Shown in pieces: positions 2,849 to 15,069 of a DNA stretch of 32,000 nt. The notes beneath the pieces were generated by a model. It was not told the DNA's origin. It worked only from the letters and a program-made list of their open reading frames with translations, and did not search any database. The position numbers were made by a program, and so were the translations under genes. The number at the start of each line of letters is the position of its first letter. Position 1 is the stretch's first letter. Origin of the DNA: Schaalia meyeri (lineage in GTDB: Bacteria; Actinomycetota; Actinomycetes; Actinomycetales; Actinomycetaceae); assembly GCF_900105015.1 (NCBI RefSeq), contig NZ_FNLK01000010.1, positions 90,001 through 122,000 on the forward strand, in the 5' to 3' direction.

Positions 2849-2944
2849 GGGCTACTTTTCATCTGGGCGGCATGTGGCTACGCTGACTGCTGAGGAAATC
2901 CCATCAGCCCGGCGTCTCCCACGCGCCGGTTTTCCAGGAGGCTC

Positions 2945-4579
2945 GTGATAGCCGTGCTTCGCGTTTGCGCACAAAACGTTATCCAGCGGTTCGCCCGCGT
3001 TCTCATCATCGCCGTCATGGCGGCCCTCGCCCTGGCGATCATGGGCGCCCCCTCGCGCGCCCAGGGCCAGACCTGGCGCGACGTGGCCACCACCATCAAC
3101 GGCCTCATTGACGAGGGCGTCGAGGCCTTTAAGGCGGGTGATCCGAAGGGTGGTAAGAACAAGGTTAACGACGCGTATTACAAGAATTATGAGACGACTG
3201 GCATGGAGAAGCAGGTCCTGAGCCGCGTTTCCGGGGCCCGCGTCTCGCAGGTGGAGATGGAGTTCTCCCTGCTGAAAAAGGCCATGACCGATGGCGCCGC
3301 CGCGGATGTTGAGAGCCACGCGGCGACCCTCAAGCGGTACGTCGCGGAGGATGCCGCCACCCTGGACGGAGTATCCCCGGACCAGGGTGCGCAGGCATCG
3401 TCCGGCGACTACAGCCCGGGCGCGTGGGGGCAGGTCGCGCAGACCATTAACGGAATCCTTGCGGAGGGCGTCGAGGCCTTTAAGGCGGGTGATCCGAAGG
3501 GTGGTAAGAACAAGGTTAACGACGCGTATTACAAGAATTATGAGACGACTGGCATGGAGAAGCAGGTCCTGAGCCGCGTTTCCGGGGCCCGCGTCTCGCA
3601 GGTGGAGATGGAGTTCTCCCTGCTGAAAAAGGCCATGACCGACAACGACTCGAGCGCGGTCGACCAGCACTACGCGACCCTGTCGAACCTCATCCGTGAG
3701 GACGCTAACACCCTGGACGGGTACACCGGCAAGTCCGCTGAATCCTCAGCCTCCACCTCGTCCCCGTGGCTGGCGCAGTTCCTGCCCTCGCTCCTCGTCA
3801 TCCTGCGTGAGGGCATGGAAGCGATCCTGGTCGTCGCCGCGGTCCTCGCCTACCTGGGTAAGGCCGGACACAAGGACAAGGTCGGCGTCGTGTGGGGCGG
3901 TGTCGCACTGGCGCTGGCCCTCTCGATCGGCCTGGCGTTCCTGTTCAACTACGCGACCTCCCTGGCTGGCGCGAATCAGGAGCTCCTGGAGGGCGTCGCG
4001 GCCCTCTTCGCTGTCGCCATGCTGATCTGGGTGTCGAACTGGATGATCAACAAGTCCTCCAACCAGGCGTGGGACAAGTACATCAAGGAACAGACGGACG
4101 CATCCTTGACCAAAGGCTCCCTGCTGGGCCTGGCATTCATCTCATTCCTGGCGGTCCTGCGTGAGGGCGCCGAGACGATTCTCTTCTACGTGCCGATTGT
4201 TTCCGGCGCCGGCGGCAATGTCCACTACGTGTGGATCGGCCTGGGCGTGGGCGCCGTCATCCTGGTGGTCGTCTACCTGCTCATCCAGTTCGCCGCGCTG
4301 CGCATCCCGCTGCGTCCCTTCTTTACGATCACGTCGCTGCTGCTGGCCCTCATGGCCTTCACGTTCACGGGATCGGGCATCAAGGAGCTCCAGGAGGCGG
4401 ACGTTATCTCGCTGACGCCCGTTGGCGGCTTCCCCACTATTGACCTCTTGGGGATCTTCCCCCGAGTGGAGAACCTGGCCGCACAGGCCTTTGTTCTCAT
4501 CCTCATCGTCGGTCTCTATTTCTTCGGAAAAGCTCGCCTCGCTCGCGAGGCCGCCGCCCAGACGCGGGCCGAGGAGTGA
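2945..4579 (+). CDS. FTR1/EfeU-family iron permease fused to an N-terminal tandemly duplicated extracytoplasmic helical domain
   Basis: GTG 2945 (alternative GTG 2954) follows AGGAGG at 2936-2941. There is an N-terminal hydrophobic signal/anchor and two ~117-aa repeats. A polytopic C-terminal half carries both FTR1 RExxE motifs (LREGMEAILV and LREGAETILF). Confidence 0.9.
   Translation: MIAVLRVCAQNVIQRFARVLIIAVMAALALAIMGAPSRAQGQTWRDVATTINGLIDEGVEAFKAGDPKGGKNKVNDAYYKNYETTGMEKQVLSRVSGARVSQVEMEFSLLKKAMTDGAAADVESHAATLKRYVAEDAATLDGVSPDQGAQASSGDYSPGAWGQVAQTINGILAEGVEAFKAGDPKGGKNKVNDAYYKNYETTGMEKQVLSRVSGARVSQVEMEFSLLKKAMTDNDSSAVDQHYATLSNLIREDANTLDGYTGKSAESSASTSSPWLAQFLPSLLVILREGMEAILVVAAVLAYLGKAGHKDKVGVVWGGVALALALSIGLAFLFNYATSLAGANQELLEGVAALFAVAMLIWVSNWMINKSSNQAWDKYIKEQTDASLTKGSLLGLAFISFLAVLREGAETILFYVPIVSGAGGNVHYVWIGLGVGAVILVVVYLLIQFAALRIPLRPFFTITSLLLALMAFTFTGSGIKELQEADVISLTPVGGFPTIDLLGIFPRVENLAAQAFVLILIVGLYFFGKARLAREAAAQTRAEE
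3113..3291 (+). repeat. intragenic repeat unit A (179 bp, identical to 3464-3642)
   Basis: Base-by-base comparison shows 179/179 identity at an offset of 351 bp (117 codons). The flanks on both sides are clearly diverged. Confidence 0.95.
3464..3642 (+). repeat. intragenic repeat unit B (179 bp, identical to 3113-3291)
   Basis: See unit A. It encodes EGVEAFKAGDPKGGKNKVNDAYYKNYETTGMEKQVLSRVSGARVSQVEMEFSLLKKAMTD in both copies. Confidence 0.95.
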
Positions 4580-4635
4580 CATCAGTCGAGCGACACCGAC
4601 CCATCACCCAACCAACACGCTAAGGAGTTCATCGC

Positions 4636-5274
4636 ATGAAGCGCTCACTCTTCCGTGTCAGCGCGGCCCTGGCCACGCTGGCCCTCGCAGGCACCCTCGC
4701 GGCCTGCTCGAACAACTCGTCTGGTTCCACCGACACGAAGCCCTCCACCGATTCCTCGGCCAGCTCCGACTCGGGTGCGGCCGCCCCCGGTGAGGACGCG
4801 GGCTTCGAAGAGCAGCCCCTGGGCGACGACGTGCACGTCGGCCCGCTCGTCGTGGGCGGCGTCTACTTCCAGCCCGTCGACATGGAGCCCGCGATGGGTG
4901 TTTCAGCGGCGGAAGCGTCAATGCACATGGAAGCAGACATTCACGCTGCGGCTGATAACAAGCTCGGCTACGGCGCGGGTGACTTCGTGCCCGCCCTGAC
5001 CGTCAATTACACCATTAAGGACAAGTCCGGTAGCACGGTCCAGACGGGCACTTTCATGCCGATGAATGCCTCCGACGGCCCGCACTACGGCCTGAACATC
5101 CCCAAGCTGGAAGCCGGAACCTACGACGTGACCTTCTCGATCGAGTCACCGGAAAAGAACGGCTGGTTGCTCCACACCGATAAGGCTACCGGCGTTGAGG
5201 GCCGTTTCTGGACCGAACCGCTGGTCGCCGAGTTCAAGGATTGGCAGTGGGATCCCACGGCTGTTTCTTGGTGA
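4636..5274 (+). CDS. P19/Tp34-type periplasmic Fe2+/Cu-binding iron-transport lipoprotein
   Basis: AAGGAG at 4622-4627 lies 8 nt before ATG 4636. The signal peptide has lipobox TLAAC. Family-typical motifs are present: YFQPVDMEP, HMEADIHA, GDFVP, FMPMNASDGPHYG and RFWTEP. Confidence 0.9.
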   Translation: MKRSLFRVSAALATLALAGTLAACSNNSSGSTDTKPSTDSSASSDSGAAAPGEDAGFEEQPLGDDVHVGPLVVGGVYFQPVDMEPAMGVSAAEASMHMEADIHAAADNKLGYGAGDFVPALTVNYTIKDKSGSTVQTGTFMPMNASDGPHYGLNIPKLEAGTYDVTFSIESPEKNGWLLHTDKATGVEGRFWTEPLVAEFKDWQWDPTAVSW

Positions 5275-5360
5275 AGCTCAGCTGACGCGGGGACGAGGCA
5301 GCGGCTCCCATCGTGGGCCATGACCTCGCCCCGCGCCCCGCCAGGGGACTACACGTGACA

Positions 5361-5392
5361 CCGGAGTCGCACGACTTCGGTCCGCCTTTTTT
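5361..5392 (+). terminator. possible intra-operon attenuator between p19 and the downstream genes
   Basis: Hairpin ccggagtc/gacttcgg (8 bp including one G.U, loop gcac) at 5361-5380. A T6 run at 5387-5392 follows after a 6-nt spacer. The spacer makes it a weak or leaky terminator at best. Confidence 0.3.
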
Positions 5393-5407
5393 AGGAGAGG
5401 AAAACCA

Positions 5408-6730
5408 GTGCTTCAGCAGATGAGTGAAGCGACGTTGATCTTGCTGCTGACCATGCTCGCCGTTGGTGCGACCATCCGCTTCATGCCGACCGCGGGCCAC
5501 GGACGTCGCGGCAAAAAGGTGCGCTCGCGGGCCGTGTGGCTGGGCATCGGTCTGGGCATGGTCGCCTCCGCCGCGTTGACGATCATCAACGTGGAGGCCC
5601 CCAAGTCGGTCAACCGTCAGACCGTCGGCCTGTACACTCTGCCCATCGCCCTCGCCCTGGCCCTCGTTTTCCTGGCGCTCGTCGCTGTGCGATCGCGCCG
5701 CGTACGCCCGCACCTGCCCGGGGGGGATGCGGACGAGGAGGCACAGGCGGCCTCGGCGATTGAGACGGCGCTGCCCGGCGATGCCCTGGTGCGCCTCGTC
5801 GGTGCCCTGTACATTGCGTTCGCGCTGTTCCGATCCGTTCCGGTGGCGATGAGCCAGGCGGTCATGATGCTCTCCGGTGGGGTTGGAATCTATTCCACCC
5901 AGGCGGTGCTCGCCATCGTCGGCTACGCGCTGGCGTGGGGGCTCGTGTGCTTCCTGGCGTGGGTGTCCTACCGCCTGTGCGCGTGGAATAACCGGGTGTG
6001 GCCCGCGATGTTTATCCTGTGCGCGCTGGCCCTTGAGCACTCGTTGATGTTCGTGCGCATCCTCAAGGCCAAGCGGTGGATTTCTGTTCCCAAGGGCGCG
6101 TGGAACGTGATCGCGTGGTTCATCAACCACGAGGCCGTCTTTACGATCGTGGCCGCCCTGGCGCTCGGCGTGGTCGTGGCCCTCACCTGGTACGCCTCCC
6201 GATCGATCCCGACCGTGGGCGCGAACCCCGCCGAGGGGCGGCTGGGGCGCGCCCGCTCCCGCCTCTACAAGTCCATGGCCGGCACCGCTGCCATCGGCTA
6301 CCTGTGCGGCGCGCTGCTGATCACCGTGGGCGTCGCGATAGGCAGCCAGGAGGTCGAGCTTTCGGCTCCCGAGGCTCACAGCGTCGTCGACGATCAGGTG
6401 AGCGTCAACCTGGCCGACATCTCCGACGGGCACCTGCACCGTTTCGAGTACACGACGTCGGGCGGCGTGAAGGTGCGCTTCATCGTCATCCAAAAATCCG
6501 GGTCCTCCTTCGGCGTGGGGCTGGACGCCTGCGAGATCTGCGGGCCGTCCGGCTATTACGAGAAGGATGGCAAGGTCATCTGCAAGCTGTGCGAGGTGGC
6601 GATGAACATCGCGACCATCGGCTTTAAGGGCGGCTGCAACCCGATTCCCATCGAATACAAGGTCTCTAACGGGACCCTGACAGTTCCCATCTCGGCCCTC
6701 GAGGCCGCGGCCCCCATCTTCGCAAAGTAG
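5408..6730 (+). CDS. polytopic membrane protein with a C-terminal DUF2318-type Cys-rich domain (Cj1660-like)
   Basis: GTG 5408 lies 7 nt after AGGAGAGG (5393-5400). There are about 7 hydrophobic helices. The C-terminal domain reads HLHRFEY...ACEICGPSGYYEKDGKVICKLCEVAMNIATIGFKGGCNPIP (CxxC...CxxC...GGCNP). It sits directly after ftr1-p19, as in Campylobacter. Confidence 0.8.
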   Translation: MLQQMSEATLILLLTMLAVGATIRFMPTAGHGRRGKKVRSRAVWLGIGLGMVASAALTIINVEAPKSVNRQTVGLYTLPIALALALVFLALVAVRSRRVRPHLPGGDADEEAQAASAIETALPGDALVRLVGALYIAFALFRSVPVAMSQAVMMLSGGVGIYSTQAVLAIVGYALAWGLVCFLAWVSYRLCAWNNRVWPAMFILCALALEHSLMFVRILKAKRWISVPKGAWNVIAWFINHEAVFTIVAALALGVVVALTWYASRSIPTVGANPAEGRLGRARSRLYKSMAGTAAIGYLCGALLITVGVAIGSQEVELSAPEAHSVVDDQVSVNLADISDGHLHRFEYTTSGGVKVRFIVIQKSGSSFGVGLDACEICGPSGYYEKDGKVICKLCEVAMNIATIGFKGGCNPIPIEYKVSNGTLTVPISALEAAAPIFAK

Positions 6731-6740
6731 AGGCGCGCGC

Positions 6741-8018
6741 TTGTTTATCCGAATGCTCCGAGGGACCCTGACCAGGCGCGGTAACCGCCACCTCATGATC
6801 GCCCTGACCATCGCGTTGGGGGCGTGCGTGGCCACCTCCATGCTCTCCGTCATGTTCAACGTCGGCGACAAGGTTAACCAGGAGCTTAAGTCCTACGGCG
6901 CCAACATTGTCGTGCGCCCGCAGGGGGCTGCCGTCCTGAATGACCTGTACTCCACGGGCGAGTCCAGCGAATCGCGGACCTATCTGCGCGAGAGCGAGCT
7001 GGGCAGCATTAAGACGATCTTTTGGACCTACAACATCCTCGACTTCGCGCCCTTGCTGAGCGTGTCCGCCACCGACGCCTCGGGCGCGCGCGTCCCCACG
7101 ACCGGCACCTGGTTTGGCCACCACCTTGAGCTCGCGACCGGCGAGAGCGTGGACACCGGCCTGGACAAGCTGCGCGGCTGGTGGGGCATCGACGGGGCGT
7201 GGCCGACCGACGACGACGCCACGGGGGCGATAATCGGAGCGACCTACGCGGCCGACAAAGGTCTGTCCGTCGGCGGCTCCTTCACGCTCACGCGCGGGCA
7301 GGCGAGCCGAGAGTTCACCGTCCGCGGCGTCGTCACCACCGGGGATGACGCGGATCGCGGCGTCTACATTCAGTTGGCCGCCGCCCAGGAGCTGATTGGT
7401 CGCGAAGGCGCCGTCGGCAGCGTCGAGGTCTCAGCCCTGACCACACCCGACAACGACCTGGCGCGCAAGGCCGCGAAGAACCCGAATTCGCTGAGCGTGT
7501 CCGAAAAGGAAACCTGGTACTGCACGGCCTACGTCTCTTCGATCGCCTACCAGATCGAGGAAGTCATGACGGACTCGGTTGCCCGCCCCGTCCGGCAGGT
7601 CGCCCAGTCCGAGGGCACCATCCTGGAGAAGACGCAGCTGCTCATGGTCCTCGTGACCGTCCTGGCGCTCATCGCCTCCGCCCTGGCCATCGCGAACCTG
7701 GTGACCGCGGGCGTCATGGAACGCTCCAGCGAAATCGGCCTGATGAAGGCCGTGGGCGCCAAGGATAAACAGATCATCGCGCTGTTCTTGACCGAGACGA
7801 TCGTCGTTGGCCTGGTCGGTGGCGTCATCGGTTACTGCGCCGGCCTTGGGCTGGCGCAGGCGATCGGGTACATGGTGTTCCACTCCTCCATCGCTTTTGC
7901 GCCCGTCGTCGTCGGACTCGTTGCCGTCCTCGTCATCATCGTGGTCCTGGGCGCTTCCATCCCGGCGATCCGATACCTGCTGCGCCTCAACGCGGCGGAA
8001 GTCCTCCACGGAAGGTGA
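6741..8018 (+). CDS. ABC transporter permease, FtsX/MacB type (large extracytoplasmic loop)
   Basis: TM1, then a ~240-aa loop, then a C-terminal FtsX 3-TM bundle with MERSSEIGLMKAVGAKDKQII. The start is TTG 6741 (alternative ATG 6753). Its stop overlaps the next start (GTGA at 8015-8018). Confidence 0.85.
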   Translation: MFIRMLRGTLTRRGNRHLMIALTIALGACVATSMLSVMFNVGDKVNQELKSYGANIVVRPQGAAVLNDLYSTGESSESRTYLRESELGSIKTIFWTYNILDFAPLLSVSATDASGARVPTTGTWFGHHLELATGESVDTGLDKLRGWWGIDGAWPTDDDATGAIIGATYAADKGLSVGGSFTLTRGQASREFTVRGVVTTGDDADRGVYIQLAAAQELIGREGAVGSVEVSALTTPDNDLARKAAKNPNSLSVSEKETWYCTAYVSSIAYQIEEVMTDSVARPVRQVAQSEGTILEKTQLLMVLVTVLALIASALAIANLVTAGVMERSSEIGLMKAVGAKDKQIIALFLTETIVVGLVGGVIGYCAGLGLAQAIGYMVFHSSIAFAPVVVGLVAVLVIIVVLGASIPAIRYLLRLNAAEVLHGR

Positions 8019-9232
8019 TCCCCATGTCCAGACGCGCAATGTTTTGGCGGATGGTCACCTCTTCCATCCTCCGCCGCCGCTCCCGCGTCCTCATCGCTGT
8101 CCTCGCTGTCGCCATCGGCGCGACCACCCTGTCCGGCCTGGTTACCATCGCCGTGGACGTTCCCGCGCAGATGGCCCGCGAGATCCGCTCGTACGGCGCC
8201 AACCTCGTTCTCACCCCCAGCGGGGATGGGACCATCACGGACGAGGCCGTGGCCGCGGCTACCGCCCAGGTGCCCTCGGGTGCCCTCGTTGGCTCCGCCG
8301 CGTTCGACTACGAGACCGTTACCATTAACGAACAACCGTACGTCGCGGGTGGCACCGACCTCGACGCCGTTCGGTCGATGAACCCCTTCTGGTTCGTGGA
8401 CGGTGCGTGGCCGGATGCCGCCGGCCAGGTGCTCGTGGGCGAACAGATCGCCTCCACGATCGGCGTCAAGGCCGGAGATGCGATCACCGTCAGTCAGCTC
8501 GACGGCGGCGCCTCCGCGAAGGCCGCCCGGGCCAGCGGCCAGCAGTCCGGTCCCGCGGACGCGTCCCAGGCCTCGTCCCTGTCCGTCGATCCGCGCACCG
8601 TGACACTGCGCGTGGCCGGGATCCTCAAGACCGGCGGAAACGAAGACGGCTACCTGTACATGTCCACCCAGGACATGTCCGCCCTCACCGGGGCCCCCGT
8701 GGCCGTGTCCATCGCGGAATACTCCATCGCGCTCGAGGGCGCGCAGCTGGGCGCAGTCGCCGACGCCATGAACGCGGCAAACCCCGACATCCACGCCCAG
8801 ACCGTGCGACGCCTCGCACAATCGGACACGGGAGTCCTCGACATGCTCCGATCGCTGCTGCTGGTCATCACCGCCATCGTCCTGGCCCTGACCATGATCG
8901 GCGTGTCCACCACGATGATCGCCGTCGTCACCGAACGACGCAACGAGATAGGCCTGCGCAAGGCGCTGGGGGCCACCGCGCGATCCATCACCTCCGAGTT
9001 CATGGGCGAAGGCGTCATGCTCGGTGCGATCGGCGGAATTATCGGCGCGGGGGCCGGATACGCCCTGGCGGCCCTGATCTCCCACTCCGTGTTCCACCGC
9101 TCGATCTCCCTGCATCCCGTCATCTGGATCGCCACCGTCGCGTGCTCGATCCTCATCGCCGTCCTCGCCTGCCTCCCGCCCGTGCGCCGCGCACTGGCCG
9201 TTGACCCCGCGCTCGTCCTGCGTGGAGAATGA
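8015..9232 (+). CDS. ABC transporter permease, FtsX/MacB type (second paralogue)
   Basis: Same architecture, with TERRNEIGLRKALGATARSI. The start is GTG 8015 or ATG 8024. The stop overlaps the ATPase start (ATGA at 9229-9232). Confidence 0.85.
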   Translation: MIPMSRRAMFWRMVTSSILRRRSRVLIAVLAVAIGATTLSGLVTIAVDVPAQMAREIRSYGANLVLTPSGDGTITDEAVAAATAQVPSGALVGSAAFDYETVTINEQPYVAGGTDLDAVRSMNPFWFVDGAWPDAAGQVLVGEQIASTIGVKAGDAITVSQLDGGASAKAARASGQQSGPADASQASSLSVDPRTVTLRVAGILKTGGNEDGYLYMSTQDMSALTGAPVAVSIAEYSIALEGAQLGAVADAMNAANPDIHAQTVRRLAQSDTGVLDMLRSLLLVITAIVLALTMIGVSTTMIAVVTERRNEIGLRKALGATARSITSEFMGEGVMLGAIGGIIGAGAGYALAALISHSVFHRSISLHPVIWIATVACSILIAVLACLPPVRRALAVDPALVLRGE

Positions 9233-10044
9233 GAGAACCCATGAACACGCCCGATAACCCCACCGACTCGAACGAATCGGGCGAGGCGGCCCACGCCTCG
9301 TCAAAGGACACGCTGCTCGCCCTCGAAGGCGTCTCCAAGATCTACGGCGACCTGCACGCGCTGGACAACGTTTCGCTGGAGATCCCGCGCGGCCAGTGGG
9401 TGTCCATCGTCGGACCCTCCGGCAGCGGCAAGACGACCCTCATGAACATCGTCGGGGCTATGGACACCGCCACGAAGGGCACCGTCACCCTGGACGGCCG
9501 CGACATCTCCGACTTGACCGCCGACGAACTCACCGAGGTGCGCTGCCGGACCATCGGGCTGGTTTTTCAACAGTTCCACCTCATCGGGCACCTCACCGCC
9601 CTCGAAAACGTCATGGTCGCCCAGTACTATCACTCGATGCCCGACGAAAAGGAAGCCCTGGAGGCGCTGGACCGGGTGGGCCTGGCCGACCGCGCCACGC
9701 ACCTGCCCCGCCAGCTCTCCGGCGGCGAACAGCAGCGAGTGTGCGTGGCCCGCGCGCTCATCAACTACCCGAAGCTGGTCCTCGCCGACGAGCCGACCGG
9801 CAACCTGGACGAAACCAACGAAGAGATCGTCCTCGACCTGTTCAACCAGCTCCACCGTGACGGCACGACCCTCATGGTCGTCACCCACGACGCGCTGGTC
9901 GCCGAACAGGGACAACGCGAGATTCGACTGGACCACGGCAGGGTCGTTAAAGAGACGTGGCACGACCACGACGTACGCGCCTGCGACGCGGCAGGCCCCG
10001 GAGACAGCGATGCACAGCGCAGCGGAAAGGACAAGGTGCGATGA
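9229..10044 (+). CDS. ABC transporter ATP-binding protein (MacB/LolD-like)
   Basis: Walker A GPSGSGKTT, Q-loop, signature LSGGEQQR, Walker B LVLADEPTGNLD, H-loop VTHD. The stop overlaps the next start (ATGA at 10041-10044). Confidence 0.95.
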   Translation: MREPMNTPDNPTDSNESGEAAHASSKDTLLALEGVSKIYGDLHALDNVSLEIPRGQWVSIVGPSGSGKTTLMNIVGAMDTATKGTVTLDGRDISDLTADELTEVRCRTIGLVFQQFHLIGHLTALENVMVAQYYHSMPDEKEALEALDRVGLADRATHLPRQLSGGEQQRVCVARALINYPKLVLADEPTGNLDETNEEIVLDLFNQLHRDGTTLMVVTHDALVAEQGQREIRLDHGRVVKETWHDHDVRACDAAGPGDSDAQRSGKDKVR

Positions 10045-10637
10045 GCGCTCGAATCAATCACGATGGCCACACCCCCGGAGCTGCCCGGTGGAGGGCACCC
10101 GCCTCCCGCGCGGCCCTCGGCGCCCTCGGGGCACTCGGGGCCACGATCCTCGCCGCGTGCCAGCCCTCCACGGGCCTCGACATGAGCAAACCCATGAGCG
10201 ATGGAACGTGGAGCGCCCAGTCCAACGCGGACGACCAGGGCTCCATCGGCACGATCACCATCACCGTCGAGGGCGGGCACATCACCGCCACCTCCTATGA
10301 GACGGCGCTGGCGGACGGCACCGACAAGGGCGCAAACTATGGAAAGAGCTCCTCCGGTGAGGTCTTTAACCAGGACTACTACAAGAAGGCCCAGGCCGCC
10401 GTCGCCTCCTACCGTGAGTACTCCGACAACCTCACCAAGGTCGGCGACCCCGCGAAGGTCGACGTCATCACGGGGGCGACCGTGGCCCACCGGCAGTTCG
10501 TTCAGGCCGCCATTCGCGCCATCGCCGCCGCCCAGGGCACTTCGCCCGACGGAGCCGACGACATCACCATCCCTGGCCTGAACGACTCCACCAAGGACGC
10601 AGGCCTGGACCAGGACCTTGGAGGCGGCGACGACTGA
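10041..10637 (+). CDS. FMN-binding-domain lipoprotein, predicted ApbE substrate
   Basis: ATG 10041 is coupled to the ATPase stop; the longer ORF from 9957 lies inside the ATPase gene. The signal peptide has lipobox ILAAC (Cys codon 10158-10160). The FMN_bind-like fold starts at DGTWSAQ. The flavinylation motif Dxx(s/t)gA(s/t) is matched exactly by DVITGAT (10461-10481). Confidence 0.85.
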   Translation: MSARINHDGHTPGAARWRAPASRAALGALGALGATILAACQPSTGLDMSKPMSDGTWSAQSNADDQGSIGTITITVEGGHITATSYETALADGTDKGANYGKSSSGEVFNQDYYKKAQAAVASYREYSDNLTKVGDPAKVDVITGATVAHRQFVQAAIRAIAAAQGTSPDGADDITIPGLNDSTKDAGLDQDLGGGDD

Positions 10638-11901
10638 CGCTTCGCCGACCTGGCGCTCCTCTTTTCCCGCGATGGGCACCCGCGTCGACATCGTCGGCTG
10701 GGGCGGGGACGGCATGGCGATCGTGAACGCCGTCGTGGAGCTGGTCGCGCGCCACGAGGAGCTGTGGAGCGTGTATCGGCCAACCTCCGAAATATCGCGG
10801 CTCAACGCGTCTGGCCGGGTGGGCCAGGCAGGGGCCGGTGGAGTCGACGTCGGCGCAGGGGACCGGGGTTCCGTGGGGGCGGATGACCCGCTCAGGGGGG
10901 CAGGCCTGGTGGTGCAGGGCGGCCATGGCCTGGTCGTTAGTGCCGACACCGACCGCCTGCTGGAGGACGCGCTGGCGCTCGCGCGCGCCACGGGCGGAGC
11001 CTTCAATCCGCTGATCGGGCCGCTCGTTGCCGCGTGGGACGTCAAGGCCATGCGCGCCGCCTACCTCGCCGGCGCTCCGCTTCCGCCCGCTCCCGGACCG
11101 GCCCGCATCCGGGCGGCGCTGCGCGCATCCGACTCGGGGCTGCTCGTGCGAATCGGCCAGCGGCGCTGGCTGCTGCGGGCGCCGGGAGACCGGCCAGATG
11201 CGGCCTCGGGCGGTCATCCGGGCGGTGGGCGCGGCCGCACCCCGGGCGCTGCACCGGGGGTCTTCCCGAGCGTTGACCTGGGCGGCGTCGCAAAAGGCTA
11301 CACGGCCGACGCGTGCCGCGACCTGGCCGTGGACCTGGGGGCCGCGGGGGTGCTCGTGTCGGTGGGTACCTCGTCCGTGGCCGCCTTCGGTACCCGTGCG
11401 GACGGTTCGCCGTGGCGCGTGGGGGTGCGTGACCCCGACGGGGCACCCACTGACGTGTGCGGCGTGGTCGAGTTGCCCGCGGATGGCATGGCGTCCCTGT
11501 CGACGTCGGGGGATAACCTGGGGCCGCTGGGGGCCCACGTCGCGGGAGCGGCAGATTCGGGCGCCTCGGCCGCGTCCGGTTGCGCAGCGGCGGTTCCCGC
11601 CGACCAGGCGCGCGCCGATCGGGCGGGCTCAGGCGGCTGCGGAGGTGCGCTCCCGCGCCTGCGAGACCACCACATCATCGATCCGCGGACCGGGCGTCCC
11701 GCGTGCTCGGGAGTGCGTCAGGTCAGCGTCGTCGCTTCCTCGGGTGTGCTCGCGGAGGCGCTATCCACCGCGATCCTCGTCGATCCATCCTGTGTGCGCG
11801 ACGAGGCCGCGGCGCAGCGGTCCCACGCGGGCGCCCCCGAGGGCCGGTGGCGGATCGTGCGGCTGTTTGGCGAGGCTGGGGTCAGTGGGGCTGTGGAATA
11901 G
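10618..11901 (+). CDS. apbE: ApbE-family FAD:protein FMN transferase (no detectable signal peptide)
   Basis: Motifs FPAMGTRVDI, GGAFNPLIGPL, GGVAKGYTAD, HHIIDPRTGRP and LAEALSTAILV. The start is TTG 10618. An in-frame TGA at 10579-10581 limits any N-terminal extension. The gene overlaps the FMN-binding gene by 20 nt. Confidence 0.85.
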   Translation: MEAATTDASPTWRSSFPAMGTRVDIVGWGGDGMAIVNAVVELVARHEELWSVYRPTSEISRLNASGRVGQAGAGGVDVGAGDRGSVGADDPLRGAGLVVQGGHGLVVSADTDRLLEDALALARATGGAFNPLIGPLVAAWDVKAMRAAYLAGAPLPPAPGPARIRAALRASDSGLLVRIGQRRWLLRAPGDRPDAASGGHPGGGRGRTPGAAPGVFPSVDLGGVAKGYTADACRDLAVDLGAAGVLVSVGTSSVAAFGTRADGSPWRVGVRDPDGAPTDVCGVVELPADGMASLSTSGDNLGPLGAHVAGAADSGASAASGCAAAVPADQARADRAGSGGCGGALPRLRDHHIIDPRTGRPACSGVRQVSVVASSGVLAEALSTAILVDPSCVRDEAAAQRSHAGAPEGRWRIVRLFGEAGVSGAVE

Positions 11902-12910: not shown

Positions 12911-13221
12911 GTCATGAGTCGGCGTGATGTGCAAATAGTTGCTCAGGATGTGTCAGGATGGGATCGTGTGACAAAGGGATAGTGGTCTGGTTTTACTGAG
13001 CCACATTGCCCCGCTGTGGAGTGCGAGGAGCTGGCGCACATCTTCTGTTGACAGGTGAGGGGATGGGTATCGCTGTGATGCGATTGGATGGCCTGATGGT
13101 GGATGTATGACCAACTGATGCTTACGTGGTATCCATCGCAATGTCCCTGTGTCCTCCGAGTTTCTTTTGGAACGTATGGAACAATGGCCACGAGCGCCCC
13201 AATCATGTGGAGGAAAGATCG

Positions 13222-15069
13222 ATGGCCCTGTTTGAGTTTGAGGATGGACGCCTCGTACCCGCTCAATTCGGGTACCCGGTCGCGCACGATCTGGGACCCG
13301 AATTGGTCGACGCAATCTGCCAGCAGGTCCTGCAGATCGTGTCGCGCCCCCTGTTCCCGGTGACCTGGCGCGACATGACCGGCCAGGGTGACGAGGAGAC
13401 GCCGCGCCTGACCTCCCTGGATGTGACGGGGCAGATCGTCTCCGTCGAGATTCTCAAGGAGCTGGATTCCGAAACCCTCATCGCGTCTCTTTCTCGCTTG
13501 GCCGAGGTTGCGTCGATCTCGTGGTCCGACCTGGCCGCCGAATACCCGTCGGGTCCCGAGGGATTCCGTACGGGATGGACGCAGTTCCGCGACTCCATGC
13601 CCCCGGCCGTGGGTCCGGGGCCCAGGCTCATCATGGTGGCGGGCAGTATCGATCCCTCGGTGCGCCCCGCCTTGTCCGTCCTGGCGACGTCCGGCGTGGA
13701 GGTTCATCTGATGAACCTCCGTCAGATGTCGAACGGGCGCCTTTTCCTCGACGTGAACGCGGTGGGGCCACGCCTTTACGGCCATGCCCCGCAGGTTCTG
13801 GCCTCCGCTGCCGCCGCCCCCGAACTGACGGCCGCCGAACCGGCGGTCGGGGTCGACGGGGCGGATCGTGCCCAAACATCGGCGGAACACGATGCGCTGG
13901 ATGGCGCGGAGGATAGTGGTGAGGCGGAAGCGGAGACACCCATGACGCGCCCCACCCCGAAGGTTTCTCCGCGCCTGCGCGACGTCTTCAGCTATCCGGT
14001 GGGCGAAGAGCCCCCGGCGCCCTGGCAGCCCGGCGATGCTGACGAAACGGAGCCCGGGGCGCAGGAGGCGCCTTCCGACGGGTTCGGCGACCAGACCGTG
14101 GGCGCCCGCGGCGGTGATGAGCGGGTCGAGGCACGGGGTGAGGAACAAGAGTGCGTTGACACTATGAGCGATGCCGACCCCGACGCGGTCGAGGAGATGC
14201 CCGTGGGAGCCGCGCGCGGGCAGGTGGATGCGGCCGATGGTGAGGCCGGTGAAGCCGAGGGCCGTGGTTTGCCGGGTGCCGCGGAGCGGGTCGATCTGGG
14301 TGACTGCGAGGAGCCTGAGGATGACGCGCGGGCGGAGTCGGTTGAGGAGTGTGACCAGGCCAGCCTGGCCACTCAGGCCATCCGGGCCAAACAGGCCGAC
14401 ACGGTCGACCCGGCTGACGCGGGCGATGGTGAGGCCGGTGAAGCCGAACCCCGCGATTGGCCCGGCGCTGCCGAGCAGATCGATGCGCCCGAGCAAGCCG
14501 ATACCCCAAAGGATGACCCCATGGAAGCCGCACCCGATCAGGAAACAGTACCCGAGCAGGAGGATGCGCTCGGGGAAGAGGAGCCTCGCTGGGAGCGGCC
14601 CGCTCACCTCGGCAGCCGCGTCGCGCGCCGCGCGCAGACCGAAGAGCTCAACGACGACGGTGCGACGGACGCGGCCACGGCCTCGTTCGTGGACCGAGCC
14701 GAGGAATCCGCGGAGGTCATCCATGCCCGAGAGAATGGGGTGCCCGTCCTCAACCGCGACGAATCCGGGCTGCGCACCCTGGCGCAGATCCTCGGTGAAG
14801 ACACGCCCCTGGTGGCGCGCGGCGAACTGGGCCTGCCCTCAGACCTGGTGCTGGCGGCCAGCGGAGCCATCTCCGGTGCGGGCCTGACCTATCCGTCGCT
14901 GGAAACCCTGCTGACCGCGCGCGGACTCGGGCATATTCGCGCCTGGGCACAGGTGCGCATCGGTGACCGGTTGGGTCCGACCCTGGCGGAGGCACTCGAC
15001 GAGATCAACCGCGAGATCGTGCGCGAGTACTCGCAGGCGCCCCGTGCCCGCCGCGCGGCCAAGCACTGA
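13222..15069 (+). CDS. hypothetical 615-aa protein: NucS/PD-(D/E)xK-like N-terminal fold, acidic repeat-containing linker, RAMA-like C-terminal domain
   Basis: GGAGG at 13209-13213 lies 8 nt before ATG 13222; the upstream in-frame extension to 13126 lacks an RBS and coding character. The N-terminus MALFEFEDGRLVPAQFG...LTSLDVTGQIVSVEILKEL...ISWSDLAAEY...RLIMVAGSIDPSV follows the layout of NucS/DUF91-type nuclease folds. The middle is D/E/A/G/P-rich. The C-terminus is GLTYPSLETLLTARGLGHIRAWAQVRIGDRLGPTLAEAL. Confidence 0.75.
   Translation: MALFEFEDGRLVPAQFGYPVAHDLGPELVDAICQQVLQIVSRPLFPVTWRDMTGQGDEETPRLTSLDVTGQIVSVEILKELDSETLIASLSRLAEVASISWSDLAAEYPSGPEGFRTGWTQFRDSMPPAVGPGPRLIMVAGSIDPSVRPALSVLATSGVEVHLMNLRQMSNGRLFLDVNAVGPRLYGHAPQVLASAAAAPELTAAEPAVGVDGADRAQTSAEHDALDGAEDSGEAEAETPMTRPTPKVSPRLRDVFSYPVGEEPPAPWQPGDADETEPGAQEAPSDGFGDQTVGARGGDERVEARGEEQECVDTMSDADPDAVEEMPVGAARGQVDAADGEAGEAEGRGLPGAAERVDLGDCEEPEDDARAESVEECDQASLATQAIRAKQADTVDPADAGDGEAGEAEPRDWPGAAEQIDAPEQADTPKDDPMEAAPDQETVPEQEDALGEEEPRWERPAHLGSRVARRAQTEELNDDGATDAATASFVDRAEESAEVIHARENGVPVLNRDESGLRTLAQILGEDTPLVARGELGLPSDLVLAASGAISGAGLTYPSLETLLTARGLGHIRAWAQVRIGDRLGPTLAEALDEINREIVREYSQAPRARRAAKH

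Follow-up and report, generated by a model that had tools for sequence, protein, structure and literature searches.

Iron uptake systems of seven or eight proteins, built around a P19 protein, an FTR1 permease and the FetABCD proteins, occur widely among both pathogens and commensals and are required when iron is limiting. Here we analyse such a system in Schaalia meyeri, encoded by eight consecutive genes within a 32,000-nucleotide stretch of DNA (the window), in which the last two genes encode a lipoprotein that binds flavin mononucleotide (FMN) and an ApbE transferase. In the same phylum, bfeUO-sifABCDE of Bifidobacterium breve UCC2003 (Bbr_0221-0227) matches the first seven window genes one by one and in order, from FTR1 and a P19-like protein through a membrane protein of eight transmembrane segments, two FtsX permeases and an ATPase to a membrane-anchored FMN-binding protein; it is induced by dipyridyl, its mutants are sensitive to iron chelation, and a terminator after the P19-like gene divides it into two transcription units (PMC5449479). 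In that study (Lanigan 2017), transposon mutants in sifA-E failed to grow with ferrous chelators, and sifE encodes the FMN-binding protein, for which the annotation suggests a ferric reductase. The B. breve apbE gene (Bbr_1825) is unlinked, whereas in Schaalia, in other Actinomycetales and in a metagenome-assembled genome (MAG) of the Bifidobacteriaceae apbE is the eighth gene of the cluster; the operator sequences proposed for B. breve and for the Schaalia cluster also differ. In Campylobacter jejuni, fetMP-fetABCDEF (cj1658-cj1665 / CJJ81176_1649-1656) shares with the window the first six genes, their order and the cysteine spacing of the DUF2318 protein; it is iron-regulated, and each of fetM, P, A, B, C and D is needed when iron is limiting (PMC6083913, PMC10783030). 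Gene deletions showed that fetA, fetB, fetC and fetD are each required and that fetE and fetF, whose products resemble oxidases, are redundant, and the role of the ATP-binding cassette (ABC) transporter was called unclear (Richardson-Sanchez 2023, PMC10783030). Genes 7 and 8 encode periplasmic thioredoxins in C. jejuni, but the FMN-binding lipoprotein and ApbE in the window; P19 is soluble and periplasmic in C. jejuni and a lipoprotein in the window; and FetA of C. jejuni has an additional YHS domain, whereas Pfam detects none in the window FetA.

The replacement of the thioredoxins by a flavoprotein is itself known. A comparison of 33 species showed that most Proteobacteria have a thioredoxin gene in seventh place, where Actinobacteria, Firmicutes, Spirochaetes and Synergistetes have one for an FMN-binding protein; both proteins were proposed as extracytoplasmic reductants for ferric iron, and the cysteine motif of DUF2318 was described in the same work (Liu 2018, PMC6083913). 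A later survey found an FMN-binding gene in 260 P19 clusters, most of them from Gram-positive bacteria, and drew the same parallel with thioredoxins (Méheust 2021, PMC8238504). The novelty implied by the original prediction for an FMN protein in place of thioredoxins is thus pre-empted by these two reports, and by the mutant test in B. breve (PMC5449479); no later study of how the flavoprotein partner works turned up in our literature search. FtrABCD of Bordetella and Brucella has a P19 (FtrA) and FTR1 (FtrC) core in common with the window, and Pfam now names DUF2318 'FtrD-like'. FtrABCD lacks the FtsX/ABC module and the flavoprotein, and the window lacks the cupredoxin FtrB and the membrane polyferredoxin FtrD, neither the operon nor the flanking genes encoding such a domain.

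The window consists of high-G+C actinobacterial DNA whose proteins are 80-98% identical to counterparts from oral Schaalia/Actinomyces. All eight open reading frames (ORFs) lie on the forward strand at the coordinates first given, with a coding-type G+C content at third codon positions of 0.81-0.88, and profile searches place them, in order, in the Pfam families FTR1, P19, DUF2318/FtrD-like, MacB_PCD+FtsX (twice), ABC_tran, FMN_bind and ApbE, the FMN_bind assignment resting on additional evidence (Table 1). This agrees gene by gene with the anatomy originally predicted, including the match of the first six genes to the order of Campylobacter cj1658-cj1663. The cluster thus has an FTR1 gene followed by a P19 gene (PF10634); a polytopic DUF2318 protein with the CxxC-x13-CxxC-x14/15-C motif as the third gene product; two MacB_PCD+FtsX permeases and then an ABC ATPase as products of genes 4-6; and, as the seventh, a redox protein, predicted to be extracytoplasmic, of the FMN-binding rather than the thioredoxin kind. 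The iron uptake system called FetMP-FetABCD(+redox partner) or bfeUO-sifABCDE is thus likely to have its Schaalia orthologue in this locus, with a dedicated flavin transferase as the eighth gene. As such, it adds nothing categorically new and confirms the Gram-positive, flavoprotein-containing version of the system in oral Schaalia species. It is also a compact, self-contained test case, with a flavin transferase and its single substrate in one operon. What is new here is the absence of a signal from the ApbE of every actinobacterial cluster examined, the lack of an in-cluster ApbE in the two Firmicutes clusters, the Tat (twin-arginine)-type signals of Propionibacterium lipoproteins, the candidate operator, the hairpins between the P19 gene and fetA, and the duplication in the FTR1 ectodomain.

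Table 1. Features of the Schaalia iron uptake locus, numbered from the first nucleotide of the window.
Feature	Position	Strand	Basis and remarks
Candidate operator TTAGG-CAAT-CCTAA	2833..2846	+	99 nucleotides upstream of the FTR1 start; occurs once in the window
Leader hairpin CCGGCG...CGCCGG	2909..2929	+	directly before the AGGAGG ribosome-binding site (2936-2941)
FetM/BfeU-type FTR1 iron permease, 544 aa	2945..4579	+	Pfam FTR1 9e-44 (residues 281-485), NCBIfam EfeU/Ftr1 3e-44
Tandem duplication in FetM ectodomain	3092..3642	+	unit of 351 nucleotides (117 aa); cores 3092-3291 and 3443-3642, 97% identical
P19/FetP/BfeO-type iron-binding lipoprotein, 212 aa	4636..5274	+	Pfam Iron_transport 4e-54; lipobox LAAC
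P19-fetA intergenic structure	5288..5391	+	long G+C-rich hairpin 5288-5335; terminator-like hairpin with T-run 5360-5391 (terminator scan)
FetA/SifA-type membrane protein, 440 aa	5408..6730	+	Pfam FtrD-like (formerly DUF2318, PF10080) 3e-31, residues 338-438
FetB/SifB-type MacB_PCD + FtsX permease	6741..8018	+	Pfam, NCBIfam; 4 transmembrane segments, large extracytoplasmic domain
FetC/SifC-type MacB_PCD + FtsX permease	8015..9232	+	Pfam, NCBIfam; GTGA overlap with FetB gene
FetD/SifD-type ABC ATPase, MacB/LolD/FtsE class	9229..10044	+	ABC_tran 2e-35; ATGA overlap with FetC gene
SifE-type FMN-binding lipoprotein, 198 aa	10041..10637	+	lipobox ILAAC, DVITGAT, FMN_bind homology and fold
ApbE FAD:protein FMN transferase, 427 aa	10618..11901	+	Pfam ApbE (PF02424) 1e-45, 156.7 bits against a cut-off of 25.6

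The assignment of the seventh gene required most care, as the window lipoprotein scores only 19.3-19.7 bits against Pfam FMN_bind, whose gathering score is 22. Its membership of the family is nonetheless confirmed, because FMN_bind is matched by 15 of 16 orthologues (best 2e-5), the NCBIfam PplA model aligns with residues 50-166 (3.9e-11), and the family profile matches PDB entries 3o6u (1.3e-5) and 2kzx, aligned across their DVITGAT/DAISGAT motifs, while an AlphaFold model built from a 52-sequence alignment (mean confidence, pLDDT, 82) superposes on 3o6u with a template modelling score of 0.72 (E 6e-6). An earlier model from 16 close homologues reached a pLDDT of only 44 and was discarded in favour of the larger alignment. 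A broader family profile takes in about 60 Firmicutes lipoproteins that carry PF04205 outright, with matches at 1e-30 to 1e-40. The predicted flavinylation motif DVITGAT spans residues 141-147 (nucleotides 10461-10481), with Thr147 as the predicted acceptor; among 52 homologues, G145 and A146 never vary, and conservation is at least 90% for D141, S/T144 and T147. It is the only D-x-x-[ST]-G-A-[ST] site among the operon proteins, no second flavinylation motif being found in any of the others. The lipobox cysteine (Cys40, nucleotides 10158-10160) is invariant in 52/52 homologues and, together with a charged n-region and an Ala/Leu/Gly h-region, predicts an extracytoplasmic lipoprotein; hydropathy gives no transmembrane segment. 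The FMN-binding lipoprotein with a DVITGAT acceptor motif that had been proposed is therefore borne out in its motif, lipobox and fold homology, and ORFs 7 and 8 both fall within the families, FMN_bind and ApbE, to which they had been assigned.

Many homologues of this protein appear in databases as 'major membrane immunogen (membrane-anchored lipoprotein)'. Nearly all actinobacterial members of the family are without a precomputed Pfam FMN_bind match, and the Firmicutes members have one. Since the actinobacterial subfamily falls below the Pfam threshold, Pfam-based censuses of flavinylated P19 clusters probably undercount Actinobacteria. Like the window lipoprotein, Treponema pallidum TP0171 (Tp15) is a small single-domain FMN-binding lipoprotein with the same motif, and biochemical work has shown that ApbE/Ftp flavinylates it on the threonine of this motif (Deka et al. 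2015). The parallel originally drawn with Listeria monocytogenes PplA/FmnB is an analogy only. PplA is an ApbE-flavinylated surface lipoprotein, and the window protein aligns with one FMN domain of the PplA model. The Listeria system itself is not what the locus encodes: PplA has two FMN domains and the window protein one, its score is 42.7 bits against a PplA cut-off of 325, and no genes for Listeria-type extracellular electron transfer (Ndh2, EetA/B, DmkA/B) lie near the cluster in the window.

The neighbourhood survey that the original prediction had proposed shows that the eight-gene order recurs in other Actinobacteria. It is found in all Schaalia/Pauljensenia loci with enough flank (about 30-35 loci), and also in Schaalia sp. 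19OD2882 and ZJ1691, in Winkia neuii and Bowdeniella nasicola, in one MAG each of the Bifidobacteriaceae and the Propionibacteriaceae, and in Propionibacterium australiense and Gephyromycinifex aptenodytis, and it is thus conserved in at least six actinobacterial families; in Pseudonocardia the FMN_bind-ApbE pair was seen at the end of a contig (a partial cluster). The arrangement is not due to chance: wherever the flanks of a related locus are long enough, the order is the same. The two Firmicutes clusters examined, from Clostridium aminobutyricum and a Eubacterium, contain the first seven genes and no in-cluster ApbE. The genomic context of these relatives supports a role in iron uptake. In three more distant Schaalia species, feoAB lies directly downstream of ApbE (L001, 11747-14187; L002, 12080-14454; L033, 11698-14144), and a feoA remnant is present in a fourth locus (L031); feoAB is absent from the window. 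An iron-siderophore ABC system adjoins the Winkia cluster, feoA and a gene for a DtxR-family repressor flank the C. aminobutyricum cluster (L044, 12891-13406), and a perfect Fur box, TGATAATCATTATCA, is located about 124 nucleotides upstream of FTR1 in the Eubacterium cluster (L045).

The eighth gene matches Pfam ApbE well above the cut-off and matches ApbE structures in the PDB as well. Its motifs DLGGVAKG, TSG, HHIIDPRTG and AEALSTA are intact, and among 43 orthologues DLGGxAKG is kept in 42, HxxDPxTG in 37 and A-E-A-L-S-T-A in 36, so that the enzyme looks functional; where the A-D-A-L-S-T-A metal motif usually has Asp, the whole Schaalia group has Glu. ApbE is the fastest-diverging gene of the operon in close relatives (about 60% identity versus 78-88% for its neighbours), with very variable Gly/Ala/Arg-rich low-complexity insertions and a length that ranges from 294 to over 480 residues across genera. 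Its most unusual property concerns the N-terminus. The literature describes the canonical ApbE as a lipoprotein that is exported and acts on secreted targets, and cytosolic ApbEs are also known. Applying simple rules for hydropathy and lipoboxes instead of a trained predictor, we found no signal peptide, lipobox or transmembrane segment in the window ApbE or in about 45 orthologues from eight genera. The TTG at 10618 is the most upstream start possible in the ORF, and only 18 residues, with no hydrophobic stretch, precede the conserved F-P-A-M-G-T in the window protein, which thus resembles the cytosolic class and not the exported lipoproteins. An exhaustive HMMER search of 1.8 billion representatives (50% clustering) gave the same picture: 26 of the 27 nearest full-length representatives, with Winkia, Bowdeniella, Actinomycetaceae, Pseudonocardia and Bifidobacteriaceae among the named ones, are devoid of a signal-like N-terminus, the exception being an N-terminally truncated record, whereas 60-78% of more distant ApbEs have one. 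Ftp/ApbE of T. pallidum (TP0796) is a periplasmic lipoprotein and FmnB of Listeria an exported lipoprotein, unlike the signal-less Schaalia enzyme. A frameshift fusion with the FMN-bind gene was considered as a source of a signal and rejected, as the frame offset differs among the window, L001 and L002 and no frameshift is conserved; where the ApbE ORF of some loci extends further upstream, the extension is only the FMN-bind gene read in another frame, and it is not hydrophobic.

Taking these data together with what is known of the relatives, we propose the following scheme. Under iron limitation the operon would be derepressed at a TTAGG-N4-CCTAA operator. The P19 lipoprotein would capture iron at the cell surface and pass it to the FTR1 permease, which would carry it across the membrane in a process requiring a coupled redox step, and this step would be provided by FetA, FetBCD and the flavinylated lipoprotein. 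FetA and the ABC machine may serve as the electron or energy link in the membrane that the original prediction saw in them. FetA may contribute the extracytoplasmic CxxC-x13-CxxC-x14-C domain of an eight-transmembrane-segment protein, and FetBCD, as a type VII machine, would use cytoplasmic ATP to drive conformational work in extracytoplasmic domains, not solute import. The small lipoprotein, with FMN bound covalently to Thr147 after transfer from flavin adenine dinucleotide (FAD) by ApbE, would act as an extracytoplasmic one- or two-electron relay in place of the proteobacterial periplasmic thioredoxins FetE/FetF, most likely reducing Fe(III) or keeping the redox centres of FetA and P19 in the right state. 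For the Schaalia locus, the analysis establishes which genes are present, in what order and how well conserved, along with their motifs, the fold and the predicted topology. The direction of electron flow (for which we favour reduction), the electron source, the partners, what the ABC machine does and where ApbE acts are inferred.

The need for the system under iron limitation and the flavinylation of a TP0171-type lipoprotein by ApbE have been shown in homologues and would apply to Schaalia by analogy. Several observations weigh against this scheme. No quinone- or NAD(P)H-linked membrane module for electron input is encoded in the cluster or among the flanking genes examined; the TTAGG-N4-CCTAA motif is missing from the more distant Schaalia and limited to the S. 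odontolytica-like group; and a transferase predicted to be cytoplasmic is paired with a substrate predicted to be exported, a mismatch in the topology of the flavinylation step. As regards the direction of flow, the C. jejuni thioredoxins are more oxidase-like than reductase-like (PMC10783030). The flavoprotein could then be an oxidant, which accepts electrons from P19-bound Fe(II) as it is oxidised during FTR1 transport, or which oxidises the FetA cysteines. FTR1 transport is coupled to Fe(II) oxidation in yeast (Fet3/Ftr1) and in FtrABCD (FtrB/FtrC) (PMC11966278); in C. jejuni, FetE is similar to thiol-disulfide oxidases and the fetEF mutant gives extracts that are more reducing (PMC10783030); and B. 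breve sif mutants are affected by ferrous and not by ferric chelators (PMC5449479). An oxidising flavin would, however, require a downstream acceptor, and none is encoded nearby, while both published commentaries favour a reductive role (PMC8238504, PMC6083913). The sequence does not discriminate between the two directions, and we consider an oxidising flavoprotein the less probable of the two, though a serious rival.

The absence of a signal from ApbE, on which the original prediction did not remark, conflicts with a simple picture of flavinylation outside the cell, as in Listeria PplA/FmnB, and raises the question of the compartment in which the extracytoplasmic flavoprotein is made. The in-cluster ApbE may be cytoplasmic and flavinylate the lipoprotein precursor before export, the FMN adduct then being carried out by Tat where the signal is of the twin-arginine type and by Sec in the other cases. 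The signal-less N-termini of the orthologues and nearest representatives point in this direction, as do the Tat-type signals of the lipoproteins of Propionibacterium australiense and P. acidifaciens (L-T-R-R-F-A-A-F / L-A-R-R-F-A-A-L), where the P19 of the P. australiense cluster instead has a KK Sec-type signal, and the lower hydrophobicity of the lipoprotein signals in Actinobacteria than in Firmicutes (mean 1.68 versus 2.19). In addition, ApbE is reported in the literature to accept a seven-residue linear tag, so a folded substrate is not needed. Yet RR occurs in only 5 of 17 actinobacterial lipoprotein signals, and the window protein has only R-W-R; the cytosolic ApbEs described in the literature modify cytosolic proteins; and an FMN-modified chain is not known to pass through Sec. 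We therefore put this inside-first route forward tentatively, as a minority possibility. If true, it would spare Actinobacteria the export of FAD and would contrast with the current view of extracytosolic flavinylation by exported ApbEs. A further explanation is that the in-cluster ApbE has a cytoplasmic function in FAD hydrolysis (as a pyrophosphatase), flavin trafficking or iron-sulphur (Fe-S) metabolism, and that another, exported ApbE, encoded elsewhere in the genome, modifies the lipoprotein. The T. pallidum homologue does have FAD pyrophosphatase besides transferase activity (Deka et al. 2015), apbE is unlinked in B. breve (PMC5449479) and absent in cis from the two Firmicutes clusters, and the metal-motif Asp is replaced by Glu in the Schaalia clade. 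Against it stand the strict adjacency of apbE to the FMN-bind gene, often with an overlap, in every actinobacterial cluster, the conservation of the transferase motifs and the lack of any other acceptor motif in the operon, and we judge such a separate function to be improbable. The B. breve data bear on the link between the two proteins as well. There, a mutant carrying apbE::Tn5 showed impairment with ferrous chelators and was normal with a ferric chelator, like the sif mutants, and the authors ascribed this phenotype to Fe-S metabolism (PMC5449479); in our reading it would fit the loss of SifE flavinylation, which is simpler than an Fe-S defect.

The remaining proteins of the operon conform to the scheme in their predicted architecture. 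FetA has eight predicted transmembrane segments and a C-terminal DUF2318/FtrD-like domain with CEIC-x13-CKLC-x14-C; hydropathy and a strongly positive first loop suggest that this cysteine-rich domain is most likely extracytoplasmic, and no solved structure related to the DUF2318 protein was found. Both FtsX permeases display a 1+3 pattern of transmembrane segments around a large external MacB_PCD domain in hydropathy plots. Among NCBIfam models, the permeases partially match MacB, LolC/E and FtsX, and the ATPase FtsE, MacB and LolD, all below the equivalog cut-offs; with this composition FetBCD belongs to the type VII (MacB/LolCDE/FtsEX-like) ABC machines. The FTR1 protein comprises an N-terminal anchor, an ectodomain of about 245 residues and a seven-transmembrane-segment FTR1 domain, as judged from sequence and hydropathy, and contains two RExxE motifs, REGME and REGAE. 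Both copies of the ectodomain repeat are present in all close relatives. The copies are 83-100% identical within a genome and about 80% between genomes, and because they are more alike within than between genomes, this points to concerted evolution through gene conversion between them. The closest solved structures to the window P19 are treponemal Tp34-type lipoproteins (5e-49) and FetP/P19/FtrA; our search for P19 homologues yielded close relatives only, with little sampling of other phyla.

The junctions between the genes qualify the view that the whole cluster is chained by ATGA/GTGA overlaps. Such overlaps occur only at FtsX1/FtsX2 (GTGA), FtsX2/ABC (ATGA) and ABC/FMN-bind, where the prediction holds. 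ApbE begins instead with a TTG within the FMN-bind gene, giving an overlap of 20 nucleotides, and the first three junctions are gaps (FTR1/P19, 56 nucleotides; P19/DUF2318, 133 nucleotides; DUF2318/FtsX1, 10 nucleotides). The stoichiometric co-expression of all eight genes that had been deduced from the overlaps is too strong a reading, because the first three junctions are gaps and one of them holds conserved hairpins, and because the B. breve counterpart forms two transcription units. Nine loci share the consensus structure of this hairpin pair between the P19 gene and fetA, few of the changes among them being compensatory, and the pair parallels the terminator between bfeO and sifA that splits bfeUO from sifABCDE in B. 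breve. It may set a higher ratio of FetMP to FetA-D expression.

Upstream of FTR1, the candidate operator is the centre of a wider palindrome, CAATTTAGGnnnnCCTAAA (about 2829-2848), and adjoins a -10-like TACAAT hexamer at 2827-2832. In 20 close relatives (loci among L004-L028) the motif occurs once per locus, always 110-165 nucleotides upstream of the mapped FTR1 coding start, with invariant arms and a variable four-nucleotide centre, and it has no other occurrence in 754 kb of related loci. Because of this combination, TTAGG-N4-CCTAA likely represents the site of a dimeric repressor. By our own reading its half-sites resemble those of DtxR/IdeR, but the spacing differs. A canonical 19-bp DtxR/IdeR box was rejected, as the best site upstream in the window matches the IdeR consensus at only 13 of 19 positions and spot checks in related loci gave inconsistent matches at varying positions; a scan with the sigma-70 consensus found no forward-strand promoter upstream of FTR1. 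The arms of the leader hairpin are conserved in an alignment of nine upstream regions, and L017 has a paired change (CTCGGCG / CGCCGA). The hairpin matches no Rfam family, and an Rfam search of the leader and the rest of the window returned no match either.

The eight genes are flanked upstream by a pyruvate-phosphate dikinase gene and downstream by housekeeping genes (hydrolase, NlpC/P60, pyrophosphatase, DacB, TilS, Hpt, FtsH, folate genes, DisA, RadA). The roughly 700 nucleotides between the dikinase gene and FTR1 (2247-2944) contain no convincing gene, and the counterpart position in Winkia holds a DUF3152 gene (L040, 1547-2479). Directly after ApbE follows a stretch of about 1.2 kb of lower G+C content (0.60) with no family match. 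Further downstream, a very acidic ORF of 647 residues on the forward strand (13126-15069), overlapped by a probably spurious minus-strand ORF of 593 residues, matches no family in Pfam or NCBIfam; most related loci have kept it beside the alpha/beta-hydrolase gene.

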